Source of the DNA: an uncultured Hormoscilla sp.
Lineage (GTDB): Bacteria > Cyanobacteriota > Cyanobacteriia > Cyanobacteriales > Desertifilaceae
NCBI GenBank assembly: GCA_963921275.4
Contig: OZ001293.3
Location: 128,001 to 192,000, forward strand
Reading direction: 5' to 3'
DNA: 64,000 nucleotides
Shown here: one piece after another, positions 1-12,222 of the stretch
Position numbering within the stretch: the first letter of the stretch is position 1
How the letters are laid out: each line of letters begins with the position of its first letter
Translations under genes and position numbers: made by a program
The notes under the pieces: model-generated
What the model saw: only the letters and a program-made list of their open reading frames with translations
Databases searched by the model: none
Told to the model about the DNA's origin: nothing

Positions 1-395
1 TACTTCCTAGGGTGAAGTCTTCAATGACGTTCAAACCTGAATGCCCAATGACGAAAGTGTCTTTTCCAGGGCCACCGAAGAGAAGGTCATCCCCTGACTC
101 ACCCGCAAGCAGGTCATCTCCAGAGCCACCTAACAACCGGTCATTATCGTCTCCACCCAAGAGACTGTCATTTCCCCCAAAGCCTTTCAAGGTGTCGTTT
201 CCTCCATCCCCGGCGATCCAATCGTTGCCCACATTCAGATTCACAGGGTAGTCAGGTCCTTGAGTCAGGGAAACCTTATCACTCCTGGTGATGGCATCAT
301 CTTCATTGCCCCCAATGATTACCGTGCCATCTATACCTGCCACCTTCGCCACCAACAGAGTGGCTTTGATAATGCCCCGATAACCACCAGCCCCA
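1..395 (-). pseudogene. Copy of the 3' RTX tail of the lipase gene (array unit 5, runs off window)
   Basis: Near-identical to about 4470-4888; no own start context. Confidence 0.85.
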
Positions 396-456
396 CCAAG
401 CCCACTCTACTAAAGATTTTTATTTCACTGTCTAGGTACGTGGTAACTGATAACTG

Positions 457-912
457 CTAACTGTTTCCGCTCCTTTTCGCTATGAAGGCAATGTAAATAG
501 CAAAGGCTATAAGTACTCCGTGGTAGGCAAGTCTAGCAATAAAAAAGAAAGAATAATTTACATTTCCTATATAGCCAAGATTACCATATCTTCCAGGTTT
601 TCCTGCCAAAATAGTCTCATAGAAGTAGCCCCCCTTGGCGCCATCGCCGTTGTCTCCCACATTAAACAGTATGGCAACAATCAGAGTAATCACCATCAAC
701 TTTAGGTAAGTCCAAAGTGATTCCATGGGGATGTAGGCTCCGGCTCTGAAAAAGCAGCCAATTAGAGGAATCAAGGGAGGAACTAAGAAGAGAGGGGTGC
801 TATATATATGAATTAAAGCAGACCATCCTTCAGATGCGAACAACAAGAGAACCCAGTTACCAGTAGAGTAGATTAGCAATAGAAAAGCAATAAGTAATAA
901 ATTGACCTGCAT
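457..912 (-). CDS. Small 4-TM membrane protein, array copy 4 (candidate immunity protein)
   Basis: 151 aa, four hydrophobic stretches, AAGGAG RBS; paralog of the copies at 1704, 2526 and 3725. Confidence 0.8.
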   Translation of the reverse strand: MQVNLLLIAFLLLIYSTGNWVLLLFASEGWSALIHIYSTPLFLVPPLIPLIGCFFRAGAYIPMESLWTYLKLMVITLIVAILFNVGDNGDGAKGGYFYETILAGKPGRYGNLGYIGNVNYSFFFIARLAYHGVLIAFAIYIAFIAKRSGNS

Positions 913-996
913 ATTTAACTCCTTTCAATTCAGCTTTATCTTTAATAAGAAGGGTAGGGGTAAGGCTAACCTCAGCCCCTACACAACCCTCTATAA

Positions 997-1633
997 CTAG
1001 ACCACTACAACCGAATCTATGTCGGAGTAGGGGACAAAGAGATGGTCTTCCAGGTCAGAAGAACTGATGTTTCTGACCAAGCCGAGAGAATCACTCCCAG
1101 AGCTGATAAGAGTACCCCTGTTATTCACCGTTCCTCCTCTGAATGGATAGGAACTAACATCGGTGAAGGAAAGTTGGGAGTAGGTGAGACCTTCGGTGAG
1201 AGCGATCAGATCGGTCGTCCTTCCTAGGGTGAAGTCTTCAATGACGTTCAAACCTGAATGTCCAATGACGAAAGTGTCTTTTCCAGGGCCACCGAAGAGA
1301 AGGTCATCCCCTTCCTCACCCGCAAGCAGGTCATCTCCAGAACCACCTAACAACCGGTCATTATCGTCTCCACCCAAGAGACTGTCATTTCCCCCAAAAC
1401 CTTTCAATGTGTCGTTTCCTCCATCTCCGGCGATCCAATCGTTGCCCAGATTCAGATTCACAGGGTAGTCAGGTCCTTGAGTCAGGGAAACCTTATCACT
1501 CCTGGTGATGGCATCATCTTCATTGCCCCCAATGATTACCGTGCCATCTATACCTGCCACCTTCGCCACCAACAGAATCGGTTCATTGGTGGATTGAGTG
1601 GCTTTGATAATGCCCCGATAACCACTAGCCCCA
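997..1633 (-). pseudogene. Orphan RTX-tail copy (open 191-aa frame)
   Basis: GGxGxD nonapeptides; near-identical to 4252-4888. Confidence 0.85.
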
Positions 1634-1703
1634 CCAAGCCCACCCTACTAAAGATTTTTATTTCACTGTCAAGGTACGTGGTAACTGGTAACTGCTAACT
1701 GTT

Positions 1704-2141
1704 TCAGCTCCTTTTCGCTATGAAGGCAATGTAAATAGCAAAGGCTATAAGTACTCCGTGGTAGGCAAGTCTAGTAATAATAAAGGTAATATCAGCATTG
1801 GATACCTTGCCAGAGTAATCTCCTGATATTCTTCCCCAAATAGTCTGATAGAAGTAGTGCGATGGGCTACTACTACCTGAGTTTCCCACATTTAACAGTA
1901 GGGCAACAATCTGAGTAATCACCATCAGCTTTAGATAAGTCCAAAATAATTCCATGGGGATGTAGGCTCCGGCTCTAAAAAAGCGGCCAACTATAGGAAT
2001 GAGTATAGTGACCACGAACAGAGGAACGCTATATAGTTGACCGAAAATAGCCCATCCTCCAGATGTGATAATAAAGAGAACAAAACTACCGACAGAGTAA
2101 ATGAGCAAGAGAAAAGCAATCAGTAACAAATTGACCTGCAT
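1704..2141 (-). CDS. 4-TM membrane protein, array copy 3
   Basis: 145 aa paralog with the same RBS context. Confidence 0.8.
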   Translation of the reverse strand: MQVNLLLIAFLLLIYSVGSFVLFIITSGGWAIFGQLYSVPLFVVTILIPIVGRFFRAGAYIPMELFWTYLKLMVITQIVALLLNVGNSGSSSPSHYFYQTIWGRISGDYSGKVSNADITFIITRLAYHGVLIAFAIYIAFIAKRS

Positions 2142-2219
2142 ATTTAACTCCTTTCAATTTAGCTTTAATTAAGAAGGGTAGGGAACCGGGAACCCCAGCC
2201 CCTACACAACCCTCTATAA

Positions 2220-2464
2220 CTAGACCACTACAACCGAATCTATGTCGGAGTAGGAGACAAAGAGATGGGATTCCAGGTCAGAAGAACTGATGTTTCTGAC
2301 CACGCCGAGAGAATTACTCCCAGAGCTGATAAGAGCACCCCTGTTATTCACTGTTCCTCCTCGGAATTGATAGGAACTAACATCGGTGAAGAAAAGTTGG
2401 GAGTAGAATCGGTTCATTATTGGAGCGAGTGGCTTTGATAATGCCCCGATAACCACCAGCCCCA
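2220..2464 (-). pseudogene. Orphan RTX-tail copy with ~390 bp internal deletion
   Basis: GGGAGTAG|AATCGG join at about 2406 fuses parent positions ~4439 and ~4831 via TAG microhomology. Confidence 0.85.
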
Positions 2465-2525
2465 CCAAGCCCACCCTACTAAAGATTTTTATTTCACTGT
2501 CTAGGTACGTGGTAACTGATAACTG

Positions 2526-2969
2526 CTAACTGTTTCCGCTCCTTTTCGCTATAAAGGCTATGTAAATAGCAAAGGCTATAAGTACTCCGTTGTAGGCAAG
2601 TCTAGTAATAATAAAGGGATGATTTGGATTGGATACCTTGCCAGAGTAATCTCCTGATATTCTTCCCCAAATAGTCTGATAGAAGTAATACGATGAGGTA
2701 CTACCTGAACCTCCCACATTAAACAGTATGGCAACAATCAGAGTAATCACAATCAACTTTAGATAAGTCCAAAGTAATTCCATGGGTATGTAGGAAGAGG
2801 CTCTGAAAAAGCGGCCAACTATAGGAATCAAGGGAGGGACTAAGAAGAGAGGAGCGCTAAATACATGACCTAAAGCAGGCCATCCTTCAGTTGTGATGAA
2901 CAAGAGAACCCAGCTACCAGCAGAGTAGAGCAGCAAGAGAAAAGCGATAAGTAATAAATTGACCTGCAT
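2526..2969 (-). CDS. 4-TM membrane protein, array copy 2
   Basis: 147 aa paralog. Confidence 0.8.
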   Translation of the reverse strand: MQVNLLLIAFLLLLYSAGSWVLLFITTEGWPALGHVFSAPLFLVPPLIPIVGRFFRASSYIPMELLWTYLKLIVITLIVAILFNVGGSGSTSSYYFYQTIWGRISGDYSGKVSNPNHPFIITRLAYNGVLIAFAIYIAFIAKRSGNS

Positions 2970-3047
2970 ATTTAAATCCTTTCAATTTAGCTTTAATTAA
3001 AAAGGGTAGGGAACCGGGAACCCCAGCCCCTACACAACCCTCTATAA

Positions 3048-3663
3048 CTAGACCACTACAACCGAATCTATGTCGGAGTAGGGGACAAAGAGATGGGATT
3101 CCAAGTCAGAAGAACTGATATTTCTGACCAAGCCGAGAGAATCACTTCCAGAGCTGATGAGAGCACCCCTGTTATTCACCGTCCCTCCTCGGAATTGATA
3201 GGAACTGACATCGGTGAAGGAAAGTTGGGAGTAGGTGAGACCTTCGGTGAGAGCGATCAGATCGGTCGTACTTCCTAGGGTGAAGTCTTCAATGACGTTC
3301 AAACCTGAATGCCCAATGACGAAAGTGTCTTTTCCAGGGCCACCGAAGAGAAGGTCATCCCCTTCCTCACCCGCAAGCAGGTCATCTCCAAAACCACCTA
3401 ACAACCGGTCATTATCGTCTCCACCCAAGAGACTGTCATTTCCCCCAAAGCCTTTCAAGGTGTCGTTTCCTCCATCCCCGGCGATCCAATCGTTGCCCAG
3501 ATTCAGATTCACAGGGTAGTCAGGTCCTTGAGTCAGGGAAACCTTATCACTCCTGGTGATGGCATCATCTTCATTGCCCCCAATGATTACCGTGCCATCT
3601 ATTCCTGCCACCTTCGCCACCAACAGAGTGGCTTTGATAATGCCCCGATAACCACCAGCCCCA
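3048..3663 (-). pseudogene. Orphan RTX-tail copy (open 191-aa frame)
   Basis: Near-identical to 4252-4888. Confidence 0.85.
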
Positions 3664-3724
3664 CCAAGCCCACCCTACTAAAGATTTTTATTTCACTGTC
3701 TAGGTACGTGGTAACTGATAACTG

Positions 3725-4180
3725 CTAACTGTTTCCGCTCCTTTTCGCTATGAAGGCTATGTAAATAGCAAAGGCTATGAGTACACCGTGGTAGACAAGT
3801 CTAGCAATAAGAAAGGGAATCTCTGAATCGCACCCAGTTTTCGAGAGAAAACCATATTTCCCTGGTTTTCCTACCAAAATCGTCTCATAGAAGTAGCCCC
3901 CTCTGCCACCAGTCGTGGAGCCTCCCACATTAAACAGTATGGCAAAAATTAAAGTAATCACAATCAACTTTAGGTAAGTCCAAAGTAATTCCATGGGAAT
4001 GTAGGCTCCGGCTCTGAAAAAGCAGCCAACTATAGAAATAAAGGGAGGGACTACGAACAGAGGAGCGCTAAACATATGAAATAAAGCAGGCCATCCTTCA
4101 GTTGTGATGAACAAGAGAACCCAGCTACCAGCAGAGTAGATCAGCAAGAGAAAAGTGATAAGTAATAAATTGACCTGCAT
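3725..4180 (-). CDS. 4-TM membrane protein, array copy 1 (cognate position)
   Basis: 151 aa, directly downstream of the lipase gene. Confidence 0.8.
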   Translation of the reverse strand: MQVNLLLITFLLLIYSAGSWVLLFITTEGWPALFHMFSAPLFVVPPFISIVGCFFRAGAYIPMELLWTYLKLIVITLIFAILFNVGGSTTGGRGGYFYETILVGKPGKYGFLSKTGCDSEIPFLIARLVYHGVLIAFAIYIAFIAKRSGNS

Positions 4181-4251
4181 ATTTAACTCCTTTCAATTTA
4201 ATAAGAAGGGTATAGAACCGGGAACCCCAGCCCCTACACAACCCTCTATAA

Positions 4252-7023
4252 CTAGACCACTACAACCGAATCTATGTCGGAGTAGGAGACAAAGAGATGG
4301 TCTTCCAGGTCAGAAGAACTGATGTTTCTGACCAAGCCGAGAGAATCACTTCCAGAGCTGATGAGAGCACCCCTGTTATTCACCGTCCCTCCTCGGAATT
4401 GATAGGAACTGACATCAGTGAAGGAAAGTTGGGAGTAGGTGAGACCTTCGGTGAGAGCGATAATATCGGTCGTCCTTCCTAGGGTGAAGTCTTCAATGAC
4501 GTTCAAACCTGAATGTCCAATGACGAAAGTGTCTTTTCCGGGGCCACCGAAGAGAAGGTCATCCCCTTCCTCACCCGCAAGCAGGTCATCTCCATGGTTG
4601 CCTAACAACCGGTCATTATCGTCTCCACCCAAGAGACTGTCATTTCCTCCAAAACCTTTCAAGATGTCATTTCCTCCATCCCCGGCGATCCAATCGTTGC
4701 CCAGATCCAGATTCACAGGGTAGTCAGGTCCTTGAGTCAGGGAAACCTTATCACTCCTGGTGATGGCATCATCTTCATTGCCCCCAATGATGACCGTGCC
4801 ATCTATACCAGCCACCTTCGCCACCAATAGAATCGGTTCATTGGTGGATTGAGTGGCTTTGATAATGCCCCGATAACCACCAGCCCCAACTTGCCGGTTA
4901 TCCAGTATTTGGAACTGGTCTAACCTGAGGCTATCTACTGATTCGTAGGTGCTGGAACCAAATAACTGGCCCAATAAACTAGGCCGGTTAGGTCCGATGC
5001 CATGGGTCAAAAGGTGACCGTAAGTGCGCGGAACAAATTTATGTTCGTCTCCAAAATCTGCTAGTGAGTTGTAATGAACTTGAAAAGCCTCGTGAGCAGT
5101 TACAGCGTAGCCCTGATTGCCAGCAGCACTCCGGGCACCATTGAAAGCCCTGGAAAATTTGGCAACGGAATTGAGAGGCTGAGGTTCCTGGTCTCCTTCT
5201 ACCCTGCCATCCAGATCGTATGGCCTATTGCCAGAAATGGTAAGTGCTGAACCCGGGTCAAGAGCCATGATAGTCTCCACTCCGTAACCATTACCGGGAA
5301 TGACCGAAAGACCGTCCCGGTAGATTCTCCCGATTTCCGAAGCCACGTAAGACCCAAAGCTGTGACCCACTAAAATGAGGTCCGATGGATCCACGCTGTA
5401 TTCTTCCCGTAAAGCCCTGGCGGCGAACTCGGCAACCGGGGTAACCCAGGTAGCAGCAGGAAAATTGACCACACTAGGAATACCAGCTGACCGTGCCGCT
5501 TCTCGCCAATCCAATGCCAAGACCCGGTCCTGGCTATCTACCGTATCTGTCACCGTTTGAACCAGTTCAGCCAGTGAATCCTGAAAATCCAGGTTCCCAT
5601 TCCAGCCGTGGATCACCACCCAGGTTTTCCCGGAACTGCTGCCACTTTGACCTTCCCGGAAGCCAACGGCTCGAACAGTTGGGTCTTGCCTGAGATAGTC
5701 GCTATCCAGTGGATTATCTCGCTCCTGAGACAGGTTGACGTCGGTGCTACCTCCCCAAATAACCCCTTGGACAGGCAAAATTGCTGGGTCAAGGTAAGCG
5801 GGACGAGATTCCCGGGAAAGGGGTGGATTAAACGGTCCGGTCAAATCCGTGACAATATGAACCGGTTTATCCACACCAAAGTTGGATGAGTAGATCTGAA
5901 TCAAGTTGTCTTGCCGGTTGTAGCTCTTGACTTTCACCCTTCCCACAACATTTTCTTCCGGGTTATCCAAATCTACATAGTCACCGGGAAACTGGCTGAG
6001 AATGTAGTCTGCATCCCCATCGTCAGGGCTAATCAAGAAGGCATCACCTACGCTTCGCCATTGGGTTTCCGGTTCAAATGGGTCTAAAATGTCAGTGTCT
6101 CCTACAGTGACTTCCGGCCTTCGCCGCAGGGTATTATCCAGGGTGGAAAAGTCACCCATACCCCACCCACTAGTGCGGTTCGGGTCCCCAACCTGGCCAA
6201 ATGAATCTACAATTTGGATTCCTTTCCTCAAAACAATGGCATCATTGCCGTTGAAAATCCGATCGACGCTGGTCTGGTCCGACTCAATCAACAGCTCTCG
6301 AACTGCTTGGGTGTGAGAAATAGTGAACTTTCTCCCAATGGGAATGGAGCCGGTTAGCTTGATGCTATACTCAGGAGACAAACTGCCATTGGAGTAGATT
6401 TCAAGGCTAAAGTCTCCTGCTGCTAAGTCAATAGCTTCTGCGGATCCGTTAAAGAGTTCCAGAGACTTGTTCCAGCTTTTCCCCTCCTCATATTTGGAAA
6501 TAATTAACCCCAAGGGTATGGGAGGGAGTGTAGGGGCAATACCCAGGTAATTGATTGTACCCAATGCCAAACCATGCCATTCGTTGCTTGGGTTAAAAGG
6601 ATCGCTGGCAGAGGTATTGAGGGGAACATCAAATCGACGCCGGAGAGTATTGTCCTGGGTGGAGGTCAGTCCAGAACCCCACTCCGTTCCGGGATCTTGT
6701 CCGACCCGACCAATAGCGTCTATTTCGACTCCACCTTTAGCTAAAACTATAGCATCATTTCCGTTGAAGGCTACATATCCGTTGGTTTGGTCAGAAAGAG
6801 ATATAATGGCCGAGCTGGCTCGGGGATCGGCAATAACGAAAACTTCACCCGGCTGGACGAGCCCTTGGAGCTGGATTGAGCGAAACTCATTTTGACCATT
6901 ATGGTAGACCCGCAGTCTGTATTCACCGTCTTCCAGGTCGATAGCTGTTGGGCCATAATTAAACAGCTCGATGGCCTTATCCCAGCTCTCTCCCTCTACA
7001 TACTCTGAAATCAGCAATGTCAT
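4252..7023 (-). CDS. Protein with two lamin-tail domains, an alpha/beta-hydrolase (lipase) and an RTX Ca-binding tail; probably type I secreted
   Basis: Two ISEY.EG..KA.E / FNGNDAIVL / TLRR domains; IHGW, ALDW, GHSFG and LDPG lipase motifs; C-terminal GGxGxD repeats; no signal peptide. Confidence 0.85.
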   Translation of the reverse strand: MTLLISEYVEGESWDKAIELFNYGPTAIDLEDGEYRLRVYHNGQNEFRSIQLQGLVQPGEVFVIADPRASSAIISLSDQTNGYVAFNGNDAIVLAKGGVEIDAIGRVGQDPGTEWGSGLTSTQDNTLRRRFDVPLNTSASDPFNPSNEWHGLALGTINYLGIAPTLPPIPLGLIISKYEEGKSWNKSLELFNGSAEAIDLAAGDFSLEIYSNGSLSPEYSIKLTGSIPIGRKFTISHTQAVRELLIESDQTSVDRIFNGNDAIVLRKGIQIVDSFGQVGDPNRTSGWGMGDFSTLDNTLRRRPEVTVGDTDILDPFEPETQWRSVGDAFLISPDDGDADYILSQFPGDYVDLDNPEENVVGRVKVKSYNRQDNLIQIYSSNFGVDKPVHIVTDLTGPFNPPLSRESRPAYLDPAILPVQGVIWGGSTDVNLSQERDNPLDSDYLRQDPTVRAVGFREGQSGSSSGKTWVVIHGWNGNLDFQDSLAELVQTVTDTVDSQDRVLALDWREAARSAGIPSVVNFPAATWVTPVAEFAARALREEYSVDPSDLILVGHSFGSYVASEIGRIYRDGLSVIPGNGYGVETIMALDPGSALTISGNRPYDLDGRVEGDQEPQPLNSVAKFSRAFNGARSAAGNQGYAVTAHEAFQVHYNSLADFGDEHKFVPRTYGHLLTHGIGPNRPSLLGQLFGSSTYESVDSLRLDQFQILDNRQVGAGGYRGIIKATQSTNEPILLVAKVAGIDGTVIIGGNEDDAITRSDKVSLTQGPDYPVNLDLGNDWIAGDGGNDILKGFGGNDSLLGGDDNDRLLGNHGDDLLAGEEGDDLLFGGPGKDTFVIGHSGLNVIEDFTLGRTTDIIALTEGLTYSQLSFTDVSSYQFRGGTVNNRGALISSGSDSLGLVRNISSSDLEDHLFVSYSDIDSVVVV

Positions 7024-7069
7024 GTTATACCTTTGGTTTTGCTCTAATTTTTTTCACATACATATGTGA

Positions 7070-7370
7070 CTGTAATTGTAGCATAGATGGTAAAGGAGGT
7101 ATGATAAGGGATAGCTTCAACCTGGTCGTTAATAGGGATCCGGTGGTAGTCAAGCCGATCGCCGACCAAACGGCAAGCACAGGAGAAGATTTCTGCTTGA
7201 CAGTTCCTGGCGATACCTTTCATGACCCAGGATGGGTCGCCTCTACCGGACTGGTTGAGTTTTGAGCCAGCTACGGGTGAGTTTACTGGTACTCTTGGCA
7301 AGGTCGATATCAGCAGCATCTACATTACTGTTACAGCTGATGATGGTCGTGGCGGTGTCGGATCTAACCG
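7070..7370 (+). pseudogene. Cadherin-like/putative Ig domain fragment
   Basis: PIADQTA..F.LTVP.DTF.DP then, frameshifted, LPDWLSFEPATGEFTGT..ITVTADDG. Confidence 0.6.
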
Positions 7371-7838
7371 AGGATGAATGGCCGGTGAGGGTGCGCAGTT
7401 CCTGTCCGGTTTGGAGATCCCACAGTTTGATGGTATTGTCTCTACTGCCACTGACAAGAGTCTTTCCATCGGGGGCGATCGCTACGGACTTAACATTGTT
7501 TGAATGCCCGCTGAGGGTTCTGAAACTGCGATTATATAATATGTAATCATATACCTTGGCAAGACGGCGGTACACAGCCCGCGCTATCAAGTAAGCAATA
7601 AACAAAAGACTGCCTGCCATCAGCTCGATCGCAGTCCAGGAGGCAATTTCCCAGGGATTATAATCAGAAGTTTCAACTAGAATCGCGGGTTTATGATTTA
7701 AATAGGTGTTAATGGGAATACCCCACTTAAAAGTATTCACCTCCACCAAATTAGAACTATCCATCGAGTTAGGAATATCCGCCGAATTAGGATCTGACGC
7801 CACGATAGCACGACCCATACGGGGCGATCGCAATGACA
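7370..7838 (-). pseudogene. WD40-repeat protein fragment
   Basis: GHSNNVKSVAIAPDGKTLVSGSRDNTIKLWD; truncated, 5' end hit by a MITE. Confidence 0.7.
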
Positions 7839-7989
7839 GGGAGCATCTCACTTTTGCATTTTGGCATTAAACTCTGCTAATTGCGAATTTAGAATAGCGA
7901 AGGTCGAAAATAGTCCAATTTTCAATTTTCAATTTTCAATTTTCAATTCTCGATTCTCAATTCTCAAGAAGCAAAACTGGGATGCACCC
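7839..7989. mobile_element. MITE with GGG(A/T)GCATC TIRs
   Basis: TIRs gggagcatctca / tgggatgcaccc; 8-bp TSD CAATGACA. Confidence 0.85.
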
Positions 7990-8180
7990 CAATGACACAT
8001 TACTGCCCTAAAAAGCGCAGTTTATGACCTTTTGGAGTATATATCAATATTTAGCAAATGCCGATATAGGATAATTGTTAAGAATGCCACAGAAAGGATA
8101 AAAAAGTGTTCAATTGGCAATTGGTAATTTTGCCGATCTGATGGTATGATCGAAGCGGATGTGTGAGGTGTAATCTAACC

Positions 8181-8519
8181 ATGACAGAATTTCTAGATTT
8201 TCTCAAGCATAAATATGCTTATGTCGCGATCGGGGAATTCCAGCCCGGCAAGTTTGATGAGGCGAAGCAGTTGTATGAAAAAGCCGTAGCCACCTATGGC
8301 CAAGGCTTCGGTGGCTCCTATCTGCTGCAAGAACCGGGAACCGATAAAAACATCGCTATCATCTTTTGGTCAAGCTTAGAAGAGATGGAAGCTAATAAAA
8401 ATGATGTTCATGAGGCGATCGTCAAGGAGATATCCCATTTGTTGGTGGAACCAGCGATGACATCAGTATATGAAGTATGCAGTACCTTCGATTCTCCCCC
8501 AAGCCAGTTAGAAGCATAA
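8181..8519 (+). CDS. ABM-like (dimeric alpha-beta barrel) protein
   Basis: GEFQPGKFDEA...IAIIFWSS pattern. Confidence 0.65.
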   Translation: MTEFLDFLKHKYAYVAIGEFQPGKFDEAKQLYEKAVATYGQGFGGSYLLQEPGTDKNIAIIFWSSLEEMEANKNDVHEAIVKEISHLLVEPAMTSVYEVCSTFDSPPSQLEA

Positions 8520-8551
8520 CTTGACATAAGGCACTATATCTGCTTGAATTA

Positions 8552-8585
8552 AGAAACCAGGTTTTTCCAAAAAATCTGGTTTCTG
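8552..8585. repeat. Palindromic AAGAAACCNGGTTTT..AAAACCNGGTTTCT repeat (also ~27482, 48335, 57352, 59113)
   Basis: Dispersed intergenic palindromes, mostly near gene ends. Confidence 0.75.
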
Positions 8586-8616
8586 GGCTACTGATGAATC
8601 AGTATTCAAACCCAGG

Positions 8617-9061
8617 GAAAGACTAAAGTCTTTACTACGAACGGGGGAAAGACTAAAGTCTTTACTACGAACGGGGGAAAGACTGGGTGCATCTCAATGC
8701 ATGCGCTTTGGCAATAATTCTCGCTAATTGCTAATTGCTCCCTTGCATTTGGTAAACCTGAAAGTCCCGCACAGAGCTAGTTTTCTCAATCTATAAATTC
8801 TGAGAGCGCTCAGGTTCTCAAATCGGAAATCTCAATTCTCAAATAATCTTATTGCTTGTTGATTCGCAAATCACCAGATGCTCCCGAAAGACTAAAGTCT
8901 TTACTACGAACGGGGGAAAGACTAAAGTCTTTACTACGAACGGGGAAAAGACTAAAGTCTTTACTACGAACGGGGAAAAGACTAAAGTCTTTACTACGAA
9001 CAGGGGAAAGACCAAAGTCTTTACTACGAACGGGGGAAAGACTAAAGTCTTTACTACGAAC
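8617..9061 (+). repeat. Tandem 30-bp repeat GAAAGACTAAAGTCTTTACTACGAACGGGG (~8 units, split by a MITE)
   Basis: Direct inspection; no spacers. Confidence 0.9.
8685..8885. mobile_element. MITE with GGG(A/T)GCATC TIRs
   Basis: gggtgcatct...agatgctccc; 8-bp TSD GAAAGACT. Confidence 0.85.
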
Positions 9062-9085
9062 GACAACTCAATCAATGGCACTCTC

Positions 9086-10537
9086 ATGACATTAATACTG
9101 TACAATACTCTCACCCGCACAGAATCTCCCTTCTCTCCCCTATCACCTCCCCAGGTCCGCATCTATTGCTGTGGGGTCACGGTCTATGACTACTGCCATT
9201 TGGGTCACGCCCGATCCTATATAGTCTGGGATACCCTCCGCCGCTATCTTCAATGGCAGGGTTTTCAGGTACATTATGTCCAGAATTTTACTGATATCGA
9301 TGACAAGATTCTCAACCGGGCTCGCCAAACAGGTTCCACTATGCAAGCAGTGGCCGATCGCTTCACTCAGACCTATTTTGAAGATATGGCCCGCCTGAAT
9401 GTCCTGGAAGCTGATGAATATCCCCGCGCCACCCACGCGATCAATGGCATTCAGCGCTTGATCCGAGAGTTGGAACGGAAGGGCTATGCCTACCCAGCTG
9501 ATGGAGATGTATATTACCATGTACGCCAATATCCCCAATACGGTAAACTCTCCCGGCGTCAGCTTGCAGAACTGCAAGCCGGTGCTAGCGGACGGGTGCA
9601 GGTACCAGCCGATGAGGCCCAGAAGAAAAAAGACCCCTATGATTTTGCCCTCTGGAAGGCGGCCAAACCAGAAGAACCCAGTTGGCCTTCTCCTTGGGGT
9701 GCCGGTCGCCCCGGATGGCATATCGAATGTTCCGCCATGGTGCGCGATCGCCTGGGGGACTCCATCGACATCCATTGCGGCGGCGCGGATCTGATCTTCC
9801 CCCACCACGAGAATGAAATCGCCCAGTCTGAAGCTGCAATCGGTAAACCCCTAGCCCAATACTGGCTCCATAATGGCTTCGTGACAGTCAATGGCGAAAA
9901 AATGTCCAAATCCTTGGGCAATTTTACCACCATCCGTCAGCTGCTGGATGGGGAAAATGCTCCCGAACCAATGGCTGTCCGCTTGTTTGTCCTCCAGGGA
10001 CATTACCGCAAACCTATCGATTTTACTCCTGAGGCGATCGCCTCGGCCCAAAACAGCTGGGAAACTCTCAAAGATGGGTTGCTTTTCTGCCAAAAGTATG
10101 GTAAACAACTAGAATGGACTGAGACAGGGTCGGTGTTAAAAGAATCCGTTGTCAAATTTCAGATGGCGATGGATGACGATCTGAACACCCCTGGCGCTTT
10201 GGCCGTTTTGTTTGAACTGGCAAAAGAACTCAAGCGGGAGGGAAATATTCTCGTTCATGCCGGAATTACAGAAACCGACCTCCAAATACTCCAAGAACAG
10301 TGGTATACTCTGGTAAGCTTGGCAAAAATATTAGGTTTAGAAGCCGGTTTAGAGGAGGAAAAAATAGCAGCTGATGGTTTAACTGATGCCGAAATAGAAG
10401 CATTGATTGAGCAACGTTCTCAAGCTAGAAAAGCTAAGAACTTTGCTGAGAGCGATCGCATCCGCAACGAACTGCAAGCCCAAGGAATCACCCTGATCGA
10501 TAAACCAGGTGGCATAACTAGCTGGCACCGCAAATAA
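9086..10537 (+). CDS. cysS: Cysteine--tRNA ligase
   Basis: [32 protein letters not shown]; true start ATG at 9086. Confidence 0.98.
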
Positions 10538-10783
10538 AAGTTGCCTAGTTGATTGTTGATTGTGAAAATAATTAATCGGGCAAAATATTGCTGACGAGAC
10601 ATCATCAACCATCAACAATCAACTAGGCCCGATCGGGCAGGCAAATAAGTAGTAGGACATGTTTGTAAATCTGTAAACTTTGGGAAAGGGAAAAATGATA
10701 GGTGGTAATTATTCAACTGACAACTAACAAATAACAAATAACAAATAACAACTGATAACTGACTTAATACTTAATAGCAAATT

Positions 10784-11872
10784 ATGCGCGAGCAACGGAT
10801 TACGTTTTCCCTTTCCGGTCTGCTGCTGATCGTAGCATCAGTCTTGTCGATAGTAGTGTTGTGGCAGCTACAGAGTCTGCTCATAATTTTGATGATTTCG
10901 GTAGTGCTAGCAGCTTCAATTGCACCCTTGGTAGAGGCAGCTGAAAGGTGGCACATCCCGCGTTGGTTGGGGACGATCTTCGTTTACCTCACCCTGTTAT
11001 CTGGATTAACAGGGGTAGGACTGTTGCTAGGTCCAGCAGTAACCGAACAAATTCAGCTTCTAGTAAAGGGGCTGCCAGTCTATGCCGAAAAGTTAATCGC
11101 CGTGGCGGAGGATACAATAACGAGATGGAATGACATTCCGTCAGATATATTCGAGTTCTTTGATGTCCAGCAGTTCACAAGCTGGCTGTTCCGTTCCAGC
11201 CAACAGCTAGTATTGCGATCCTATAGTATCACCAGGGGAATTTTGGGTGCCGTGATTAGCCTAATTCTCTCTTTGTTTATTTCTGGCTACATGGTAGCGG
11301 ATAGTCAAACCCTAGTACGCAGTGTCGTGCGTCTGTTTCCCCAACCTTGGGAGGAACGTTTGGCAGCTCAAGTGCCGATTATTAGTTACCGCATGGGCAG
11401 TTATATTCGGGGCCGACTTTTGGTTTCCTTGATTTTAGGCATAGTCACGACTGTCGGGTTGGGCTTTTTGGGGCTGCGGGAGTTTTCTCTCGGGTTAGGA
11501 GTCATCGCTGGTGTCACAAATTTAATCCCCTTTATCGGACCAGTTTTGGGGGCAATTCCGGCTTTGGTGGTGGCGATCGCCGCTGGGGGATGGAAGTTTC
11601 TCTGGATATTGCTGTTCTTCGTGGTGATCCAGAATATAGAAACCTATGTCCTCGATCCCTTTCTGGTAGGTTCTTCTGTAGGGTTACACCCCCTCTACCA
11701 GTTGCTAGCAGTGGTGGGAGGTACGCAAATTTTCGGTATTATTGGAGCGTTGATCGTACCGCCTTGGGTGGCAGGTGCAGCTGCTTTGATCGAGAATCTG
11801 TATTTAGAGCCTAAGCAGCGGGCCGAACAGAAAACGATCGTCATTTCCCCCGAGACAAATATGCCTCAGTGA
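10784..11872 (+). CDS. AI-2E family transporter
   Basis: Multi-TM; NLIPFIGP, QNIE, VGLHP motifs. Confidence 0.9.
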   Translation: MREQRITFSLSGLLLIVASVLSIVVLWQLQSLLIILMISVVLAASIAPLVEAAERWHIPRWLGTIFVYLTLLSGLTGVGLLLGPAVTEQIQLLVKGLPVYAEKLIAVAEDTITRWNDIPSDIFEFFDVQQFTSWLFRSSQQLVLRSYSITRGILGAVISLILSLFISGYMVADSQTLVRSVVRLFPQPWEERLAAQVPIISYRMGSYIRGRLLVSLILGIVTTVGLGFLGLREFSLGLGVIAGVTNLIPFIGPVLGAIPALVVAIAAGGWKFLWILLFFVVIQNIETYVLDPFLVGSSVGLHPLYQLLAVVGGTQIFGIIGALIVPPWVAGAAALIENLYLEPKQRAEQKTIVISPETNMPQ

Positions 11873-12222
11873 TTTGAGTTGTCAGTTGCGCAGGACGGCC
11901 AGATCGCCTGTCCGGAGGTCCGGAGGTCCTCACTGCTCAGCTGGATATGCTCCCTCGAATCATCGAAGGGGATTTTATTGCTAATTTTGATCTTACCTCT
12001 AAGTACCGCTCGCAGCAATCGATTCACAGCTCTTTGCTCTTGTTCGTCCAGGGACTCATCTAATATGGCGGCCATCAGTCCATAGCGGTCAGTTAGAGTG
12101 AGCACGCCACTGTCGCTACTAGAGGCGAAAATTTCTGCAATAGCACCAGGTATAAGTTGAACTTGTGGTAACATATCATTACATTTAACCCTACTATTCC
12201 CATATCTCTCTTTTTTACTCAT
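11866..12222 (-). CDS. Conserved cyanobacterial hypothetical protein
   Basis: LT.TDRYGLMAAIL..SL.EQE.RAV.RLL motif; start uncertain. Confidence 0.6.
   Translation of the reverse strand: MSKKERYGNSRVKCNDMLPQVQLIPGAIAEIFASSSDSGVLTLTDRYGLMAAILDESLDEQEQRAVNRLLRAVLRGKIKISNKIPFDDSREHIQLSSEDLRTSGQAIWPSCATDNSNH

Follow-up and report, generated by a model that had tools for sequence, protein, structure and literature searches.

The left end of a 64,000-nucleotide (nt) stretch of DNA from an uncultured Hormoscilla sp. (here called the window; G000:C1:128001-192000, where G000 is the source genome, with an assembly size of 7.03 Mb) carries a gene for a large exoprotein with two lamin-tail (LTD) domains, a lipase domain and RTX repeats. 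This gene is followed by an array in which genes for small four-helix transmembrane (TM) proteins, here referred to as TM genes, alternate with copies of the end of the lipase gene, here referred to as orphan tails. The array recurs in other genomes with the same anatomy and the same junction, the lipase and TM genes are linked, each class of TM gene is under purifying selection, and the orphan tails evolve like coding sequence. These comparisons indicate that this is a real, mobile and accessory locus encoding a lipase and a membrane partner, and one that grows by recombination between its tail repeats.

The four TM genes lie 3' of the lipase gene (the parent) and on the same strand, are all intact, and alternate with four orphan copies of the last ~640 nt of the parent (Table 1). 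Every module begins at one and the same base, parent position 4888, and the catalytic domain is not copied; a preliminary description of this DNA had reported both points along with the open reading frames (ORFs) and modules, and the ORF list and blastn bear it out. In a search of the genome the lipase domain is single-copy. A blastn search of the whole genome with the module at 3664-4888 returned six rows, all within C1:127874-132888 and with 84-91% identity over no more than 1242 nt; their E value of 0 shows that they are not due to chance, and no further copy of this module was found elsewhere in the 7.03-Mb assembly. Extension of the array to the left, which the preliminary description had recommended for counting modules, places its end 126 nt beyond the window edge: the last orphan tail (543 nt) is truncated, runs past the edge and closes the array, so there are no further modules. 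The tails had been called near-identical, and within this genome they are (94-97.5% nucleotide identity), with the qualification that the tail of module 3 (1634-2464) has an internal deletion of ~389 nt and a frame shift; tails from the different genomes group mostly by lineage. A ribosome-binding site of the AAGGAG type is conserved ahead of the ATG of each TM gene, and at TM1 lies 7 nt upstream.

Table 1. Features of the lipase/TM locus in the window (positions in nt; aa, amino acids), and composition of the related arrays in three other genomes
Feature	Position	Strand	Description
Parent gene	4252..7023	minus	923-aa ORF: two LTD, linker, alpha/beta-hydrolase lipase (GHSFG), RTX repeats, C-terminal end ...DSVVVV
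N-terminal LTD pair	6058..7017	minus	aa 3-322; Pfam LTD, 2 stretches, E 5.7e-18
Lipase domain	4864..5736	minus	aa 430-720; Ser555 within GHSFG; His661 invariant in 25 homologues
Parent tail (copied segment)	4252..4888	minus	aa 713-923; RTX beta-roll repeats and C-terminal end
TM1	3725..4180	minus	151 aa, 4 predicted TM helices; starts 71 nt past parent stop
Orphan tail 1	3048..3663	minus	Open frame; 21-nt in-frame deletion; tail-like ORF 3048-3623
TM2	2526..2969	minus	147 aa
Orphan tail 2	2220..2464	minus	Internal deletion of ~389 nt, frame shift at start; tail-like ORF 2220-2474
TM3	1704..2141	minus	145 aa
Orphan tail 3	997..1633	minus	Full length, open frame; tail-like ORF 997-1572
TM4	457..912	minus	151 aa
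Orphan tail 4	1..395	minus	3'-truncated; extends 126 nt left of window to C1:127874; tail-like ORF 2-355
G004 array			Five TM genes, five tails; located at the site that the G000 array occupies in the chromosome
G028 array			TM, tail, then three head-to-tail TM genes without intervening tails
G437 array			TM-TM-tail-TM-TM-tail-TM-partial tail; second TM cluster ~9 kb away

Contigs assembled from other public sequencing runs (X1 and X3, compared over window positions 1-7100) contain further TM alleles at 90-95% identity, together with joints that are absent from the window (3680>1696, 5231>1872 and 2147>470). The contigs, from four runs, are short and fragmented, and the new joints fit either reordered arrays in other populations or assembly chimeras within the repeat.

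Pfam searches agree with the earlier reading of the parent as an LTD-lipase-RTX gene. The two LTD domains resemble one another (aa 1-157 against aa 170-322 in tblastn rows), and the lipase domain scores 28.9 bits with PF00151, which is borderline relative to the cutoff of 27, and 28.8 with Abhydrolase_6 (cutoff 26.3); its PDB sequence matches, to relatives of pancreatic lipase (aa 449-577), are weaker than those of the RTX region. Residues G553, H554, S555 and G557 of the GxSxG elbow are invariant among the 25 lipase homologues, and among the candidates for the remainder of the triad His661 is likewise invariant and the Asp of an ALDP motif falls outside the list of invariant or near-invariant positions. 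Near the C-terminus are Gly/Asp-rich calcium-binding nonapeptide repeats (PF00353 HemolysinCabind, E 1.8e-9, aa 799-832), matching in the PDB the RTX blocks of CyaA and hemolysin (aa 776-838; phmmer to CyaA, E 1.7e-19). A hydrophobic N-terminal signal is not visible in the protein sequence, and no secretion genes are present among the ORFs flanking the array. The genome does contain a HlyB/HlyD-type pair, with a HlyB-type gene (TIGR01846, 737.8 bits, cutoff 725.55) and a HlyD-type gene (TIGR01843, 210.8 bits, cutoff 208.65) side by side at C1:775616-779301 in an NCBIfam search, about 650 kb from the lipase locus. The most likely route of export for the parent exoprotein is a type I secretion system (T1SS) whose genes lie elsewhere in the genome.

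The close relatives of the TM proteins amount to 31 protein clusters among 5.8 billion, and four of 61 related genomes, G000 included, carry the family. Named records come from Hormoscilla sp. GUM202, Hormoscilla sp. SP12CHS1, Prochloron sp. and Candidatus (Ca.) Paraprochloron terpiosi, and we take these three genera to be cyanobacterial symbionts of sponges and ascidians. Both the lipase and the TM gene are absent from two of the four other genomes of the same genus (G001 and G002), making the locus an accessory one. Four arrays can be compared, those of G000, G004 (Hormoscilla sp. GUM202), G028 (Ca. Paraprochloron) and G437 (Prochloron), and in all of them the parent gene is followed by TM genes and orphan tails, with differing content. 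The junction between spacer and orphan tail, at which a spacer ending in GTAGGGTG(G/A)GCTTGG meets a tail starting with TGG, is identical in all 12 of the 12 orphan tails from these four genomes (two Hormoscilla, one Ca. Paraprochloron and one Prochloron), from which we conclude that a single ancestral duplication was passed on as an array, by inheritance or by transfer. Synonymous divergence between the lipase genes of Hormoscilla and those of the Prochloron group is only about 0.16-0.20, suggesting recent transfer between these genera. One further genome has two lipases (P0059 and P0060) and at least eight TM genes. A search of the literature on this locus found no paper.

Several of these loci have been disrupted. 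The G028 lipase gene (G028:C1:838001-858000, 143-10716) is in three pieces (aa 1-55, 98-210 and 212-919), parted by an inserted GH31 glycosidase gene and an opposite-strand ORF for a reverse transcriptase/maturase of the group II intron type, and in the G437 parent (G437:C1:3876001-3904000) the second LTD is deleted and there is a frameshift, with an in-frame TGA stop in the first TM gene. The other TM genes are nevertheless intact in G028 and G437, as well as in a more distant genome, G599, although the lipase is broken. The distal ends of the arrays differ among all four genomes; in G004 (C6 4612-5022) the truncated distal orphan tail abuts a 136-aa ORF that resembles an insertion sequence fragment and has no Pfam match. 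The second G437 cluster (a partial and two further TM genes), some 9 kb on, lies beside the flanking genes that end the Paraprochloron array, and is separated from the first cluster by a TnpB-like ORF, a GH31 gene and a beta-propeller remnant. This second cluster appears to have been split off from the array by insertion.

The preliminary description had suggested a search of relatives for the lipase/TM pair, and the pairing recurs at considerable distance. The G523 genome (contig C102) has a 942-aa LTD-lipase-RTX gene whose product is 51% identical to the parent, and the adjacent TM homologue is 29% identical to TM1; these two genes are followed, in this order, by a transposase-like ORF, an orphan tail and another TM gene, which shares 51% identity with the first. 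The orphan tail is only 73.5% identical in nucleotide sequence to the tail of its own parent. The transposase-like ORF encodes 285 aa and occupies positions 10469-11326 of the contig. A second genome, the above-mentioned G599, retains lipase remnants, one partial TM gene and one intact TM gene. The lineage comprising G523 and G599 is a second, independent case of the linkage.

How specific the linkage is can be judged from wider searches. A profile search of 1.84 billion representatives yielded 24 TM-family proteins, which, apart from the family's own P0012 and two of odd size, are about 150 aa long and have the motifs T-x-G-G-W and F-N-x-G-D-C-G-D in common. In an order-level sample of 401 genomes, 33 have a member of the TM family and 44 have a match to the lipase domain; among the latter, six have an adjacent TM gene, 34 have no TM-family match, three have both genes on different contigs, and one (G003) has contigs that are too short. 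Arrayed or multi-copy TM loci in the 401 genomes all lie beside a lipase gene or its remnants, with the exception of the second G437 cluster. Across cyanobacteria the lipase-RTX module also occurs widely with N-terminal domains of other kinds. No lipase piece lies within 1.5 kb of the distant TM homologues at any of 24 loci. The preliminary description would have been contradicted had TM homologues been unlinked to lipases; this is indeed so of the distant ones, but the close and intermediate ones are linked. In one cyanobacterial family a distant TM homologue with a conserved F-N-x-G-D-C-G-D loop is single-copy in 19 of 27 genomes, with recurring unrelated neighbours, namely two ORFs, one with a CPRKFQH motif (10 of 20 loci) and one ComF-like (8 of 20), and a cyclic nucleotide (cNMP)/sigma-54-type AAA protein (6 of 20). 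This pattern across genomes shows that the partnership is specific to the LTD-lipase clade, and is old enough for the two proteins to have diverged to 51% and 29% identity.

The orphan tails do not evolve as debris. Excluding G004_t1 and the short Pro_t3p, the ratio of nonsynonymous to synonymous differences (pN/pS) is 0.37 over 45 pairs of orphan tails, against 0.38 for the four parents, and the frame is open to the native stop in nine of nine full-length orphan tails, G004_t1 with its early frameshift being counted among them. The pN/pS value leads us to reject a neutral pseudogene status for the orphan tails. Such coding-like evolution makes the tails look like part of working genes, either now or recently, or repaired from them; the ratio may accordingly reflect descent from functional tails, or conversion by them, rather than expression.

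The TM genes are far more diverged than the tails: synonymous divergence (dS) is 0.12-0.37 for the helices and reaches 0.8 for the loop. Their alleles fall into classes that are common to several genomes and genera, with array order differing, and are mosaic, in that the identities of the N-terminal part and of the loop are poorly correlated (r=0.25 over 496 pairs); some pairs are 92% identical in the N-terminal part and 40% in the loop, and others 70% and 93% respectively. Selection ratios for each copy, which the preliminary description had called for, point to TM alleles that are functional and diversified: within classes, pN/pS in four G000/G004 pairs is 0.44 overall, 0.29 in helices 1-3 and 0.73 in the loop, and from this purifying selection we conclude that all four TM copies are maintained genes. 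When different classes are compared, the loop has a ratio of 0.90 (with the truncated G028_TM4 left out), and 12 of 13 TM ORFs in G000, G004 and G028 are full-length. The lipase varies less, with 88-93% identity between genomes (88-91% for the domain in four other genomes and 93% for the full protein between G000 and G004), and its variation is concentrated at aa 470-530 and aa 640-670.

TM2 to TM4 are 63-76% identical to TM1 at the protein level, and most of the differences fall within helices 1-2 and the loop that joins helices 3 and 4. The earlier statement that the membrane genes are intact stands, and their description as strongly divergent is true of the loop only. Each protein has four hydrophobic segments by hydropathy, and an AF2 model of TM1 from a 43-sequence alignment is a four-helix bundle (pLDDT 81.6, pTM 0.78); an earlier model from 12 close sequences was poor (pLDDT 48.7). 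The variable loop of 35-40 residues that connects helices 3 and 4 is predicted to be periplasmic, as judged from the distribution of charge (an Arg after helix 2 and Lys-Arg at the C-terminus), and the two Cys residues present in this loop in many distant relatives fit a periplasmic location. No family was found in Pfam for the four window copies and 21 distant ones, nor in NCBIfam for three window copies and four distant ones, and a search of the ESM Atlas gave only unnamed clusters. Scans of metagenome contigs found no relative with alignment A1, and with P0016 (a TM gene into which an AUDH-propeller remnant reads through) gave as sole match an unrelated beta-propeller.

With respect to function, the reading that we favour, tentatively and at a little below even confidence, is by analogy with effector-immunity pairs: the TM proteins would make the producer, and its kin, resistant to the lipase. 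This estimate takes in the stricter version, considered below, in which individual alleles are matched. The first partner would be the large exoprotein with its two LTD domains, Ser-His lipase, RTX repeats and C-terminal end, exported by a type I system, and the second a dedicated inner-membrane protein of 145-151 aa with four helices, whose gene follows immediately in the same orientation. The near-identical tails provide the substrate for unequal homologous recombination, by which units are added, removed and reordered, and intragenic recombination shuffles the TM alleles. On the immunity-like reading, the keeping of several TM classes would give wider protection. What leads us to this reading is the combination of a secreted enzyme, an adjacent membrane protein (a small multi-pass protein whose gene adjoins that of the secreted protein, co-oriented and with a gap of 71 nt), the maintenance of distinct classes, the survival of the small genes where the enzyme is lost, and the accessory and mobile distribution of the locus.

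A number of observations weigh against it. Lipase-RTX relatives at 47% identity or less have no TM partner at all, from which it follows that the enzyme family is not inherently self-toxic, and the wider TM family, single-copy among syntenic neighbours of housekeeping type in one cyanobacterial family, has an ancestral role other than immunity. Purifying selection acts on the lipase, with a pN/pS of 0.41 over aa 430-720 and no 20-codon window inside the domain above 1, and TM diversity far exceeds that of the lipase; the G000 and G004 lipases are 93% identical and yet the TM genes in first position are of different classes. The loop ratios of 0.7-0.9 are as compatible with relaxed constraint as with diversifying selection, and the model of TM1 has no informative relative among solved structures (Foldseek best E 1.2; VIA-align best Z 7.5, below the noise for helical bundles). 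It is also hard to account for the route by which an exoprotein of 923 aa would reach the periplasmic face of a target's inner membrane.

An alternative is that the TM protein is an accessory to the lipase with no protective role, acting in export, folding, membrane tethering or the handling of lipid products, with the array a by-product of unequal crossing-over whose paralogues have drifted or subfunctionalised. The tight and conserved lipase/TM linkage is equally expected on this explanation, and a lipase that is conserved rather than polymorphic and an ancestral TM family in a housekeeping-like context speak for it. We consider it somewhat unlikely nonetheless, because an accessory factor has no need of four to eight divergent classes held under purifying selection across genera, and would not be expected to stay intact where the lipase is broken, or to be dispensable to lipase relatives at 47% identity or less.

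Quite unlikely is the strict polymorphic toxin that the preliminary description had in mind, in which each lipase variant would be neutralised by a TM class of its own, with the array serving as an immunity library directed at foreign alleles. The catalytic domain does have variation hot spots, including a patch of six to seven residues directly before the invariant His661 that differs in six of six lipases, and a patch without a Pro insertion accompanies a class-A first TM gene in G000, G028 and G437, whereas in G004 one with the insertion accompanies class B; with an n of four and two close kin this is an anecdote. The covariation of lipase variant with first TM allele, for which a test had been proposed, does not emerge from G000 and G004, in which lipases that are 93% identical precede first TM genes of different classes; the lipase/array pairs compared number only four to six, several of them close kin. 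Neither does the lipase behave like a toxin of the Rhs or contact-dependent inhibition (CDI) type, given its pN/pS of 0.41, its 88-93% identity between genomes and the imbalance between about six known lipase variants and more than 30 TM proteins; the orphan modules contain no alternative toxic domain, unlike Rhs, CDI and MafB cassettes as PMC5472700 presents them. The first TM gene of G437 is moreover interrupted by its TGA stop. Taken as an immunity library against foreign lipase alleles, the array is thus only weakly suggested by the sequences. Very unlikely is a TM family with no relation to the lipase, such as a variable envelope protein directed against phage or another toxin at a duplication-prone spot with passive tails. 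The predicted periplasmic position of the variable loop, the conserved loop Cys of the wider family, the unlinked distant homologues and the second Prochloron cluster with no adjacent lipase would suit it, but the linkage has a second, independent occurrence at 51%/29% identity, where an orphan tail is likewise present, and arrayed TM loci in 401 genomes keep to lipases or their remnants, that one cluster apart.

The immunity-like reading can be taken one step further, to an 'inverted' polymorphic effector system for type I secretion, which we regard as unlikely as a whole. Units of a tail and a membrane immunity allele would be shared among the sponge and ascidian symbionts (Hormoscilla, Prochloron and Paraprochloron), moving between arrays and genomes and settling competition between strains within hosts, and small changes beside the lipase active site would set which immunity class is protective. 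Because the export signal is C-terminal, the conserved tail would adjoin the immunity gene and double as the recombination handle.

Outside the locus itself, the array is bordered on the left by an ABC ATPase gene and psbD and on the right by a WD40-like fragment and cysS. Directly upstream of the lipase gene is a 202-aa ORF (window 7243-7851, minus strand) whose C-terminal part is WD40-like, and its G004 counterpart is split into several ORFs. Just upstream of the long ORF containing cysS, and running into it, are two tandem arrays of a 30-nt unit with the palindromic core AAAGACTAAAGTCTTT, at window positions 8615-8684 (2.3 copies) and 8886-9062 (5.9 copies), with 95-100% match and no Rfam match. 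Rfam gave no match anywhere within window positions 1-12000, and scans of the locus for promoters and terminators were at chance level only.

Should the TM proteins prove protective against the lipase, the array would be the first of the effector-immunity kind to involve an RTX/T1SS enzyme, and also the first known from cyanobacteria; a family of membrane proteins that is unannotated would at the same time gain a named function. The locus, ~80-93% identical between symbionts of different host phyla, is a mark of recent gene flow between them and may be relevant to the rise of single strains to dominance within a host. Whatever the role of the TM proteins, the locus shows clearly how, in nature, a repeated gene fragment drives the growth of an array and the shuffling of its alleles.

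Several known systems invite comparison. Family I.3 RTX lipases (Pseudomonas and Serratia LipA, TliA) also have C-terminal RTX repeats and are exported by a T1SS, and we know of no partner membrane gene or array for them; their chains 2qua and 2z8x match the parent only in the RTX part (aa 773-858), the catalytic domain here being PF00151-like. The Tle effectors of type VI secretion systems (T6SS) are GxSxG lipases deployed against neighbouring bacteria, with an adjacent Tli immunity gene and extra immunity genes that are sometimes duplicated. Tli proteins are periplasmic or lipoproteins and Tle delivery is by the T6SS, unlike the present locus, in which the partner is a four-helix membrane protein and the export signature is that of RTX/T1SS proteins; no T6SS genes stood out in the neighbouring ORF lists, which had no family-library scan. 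In Cdz, a contact-dependent bacteriocin system of Caulobacter, the gene for an antibacterial protein exported by a T1SS shares an operon with that for CdzI, a small multi-pass membrane protein conferring immunity (PMC5380434), a juxtaposition similar to the one seen here. CdzC and CdzD are glycine-zipper peptides of ~85 aa, whereas the lipase is an enzyme; for CdzI, three helices are predicted and similarity to the TM family was not detected, and that source describes neither arrays nor orphan fragments.

A close parallel in architecture is with the Neisseria tpsC and mafB-CT, Rhs and CDI orphans, in which 5'-truncated copies of a 3' region are interleaved with genes thought or shown to confer immunity, in arrays that vary between strains in a manner explained by recombination in a conserved segment (PMC5472700). 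Here too, 5'-truncated copies of the 3' region of a secreted-protein gene lie downstream of that gene, with small genes between them. The orphans of those systems each end in a different toxic domain at the C-terminus, preceded by the conserved handle, whereas here it is the conserved RTX/export tail that is copied, no catalytic domain is included, and only the small membrane gene varies. With a catalytic domain that is not hypervariable, and orphans without an alternative toxic domain, we do not file the locus under polymorphic toxin systems. Newly observed here are the presence of the same array and junction in three genera of symbionts, an independent distant case of the same linkage, and mosaic classes of TM genes common to several genomes.

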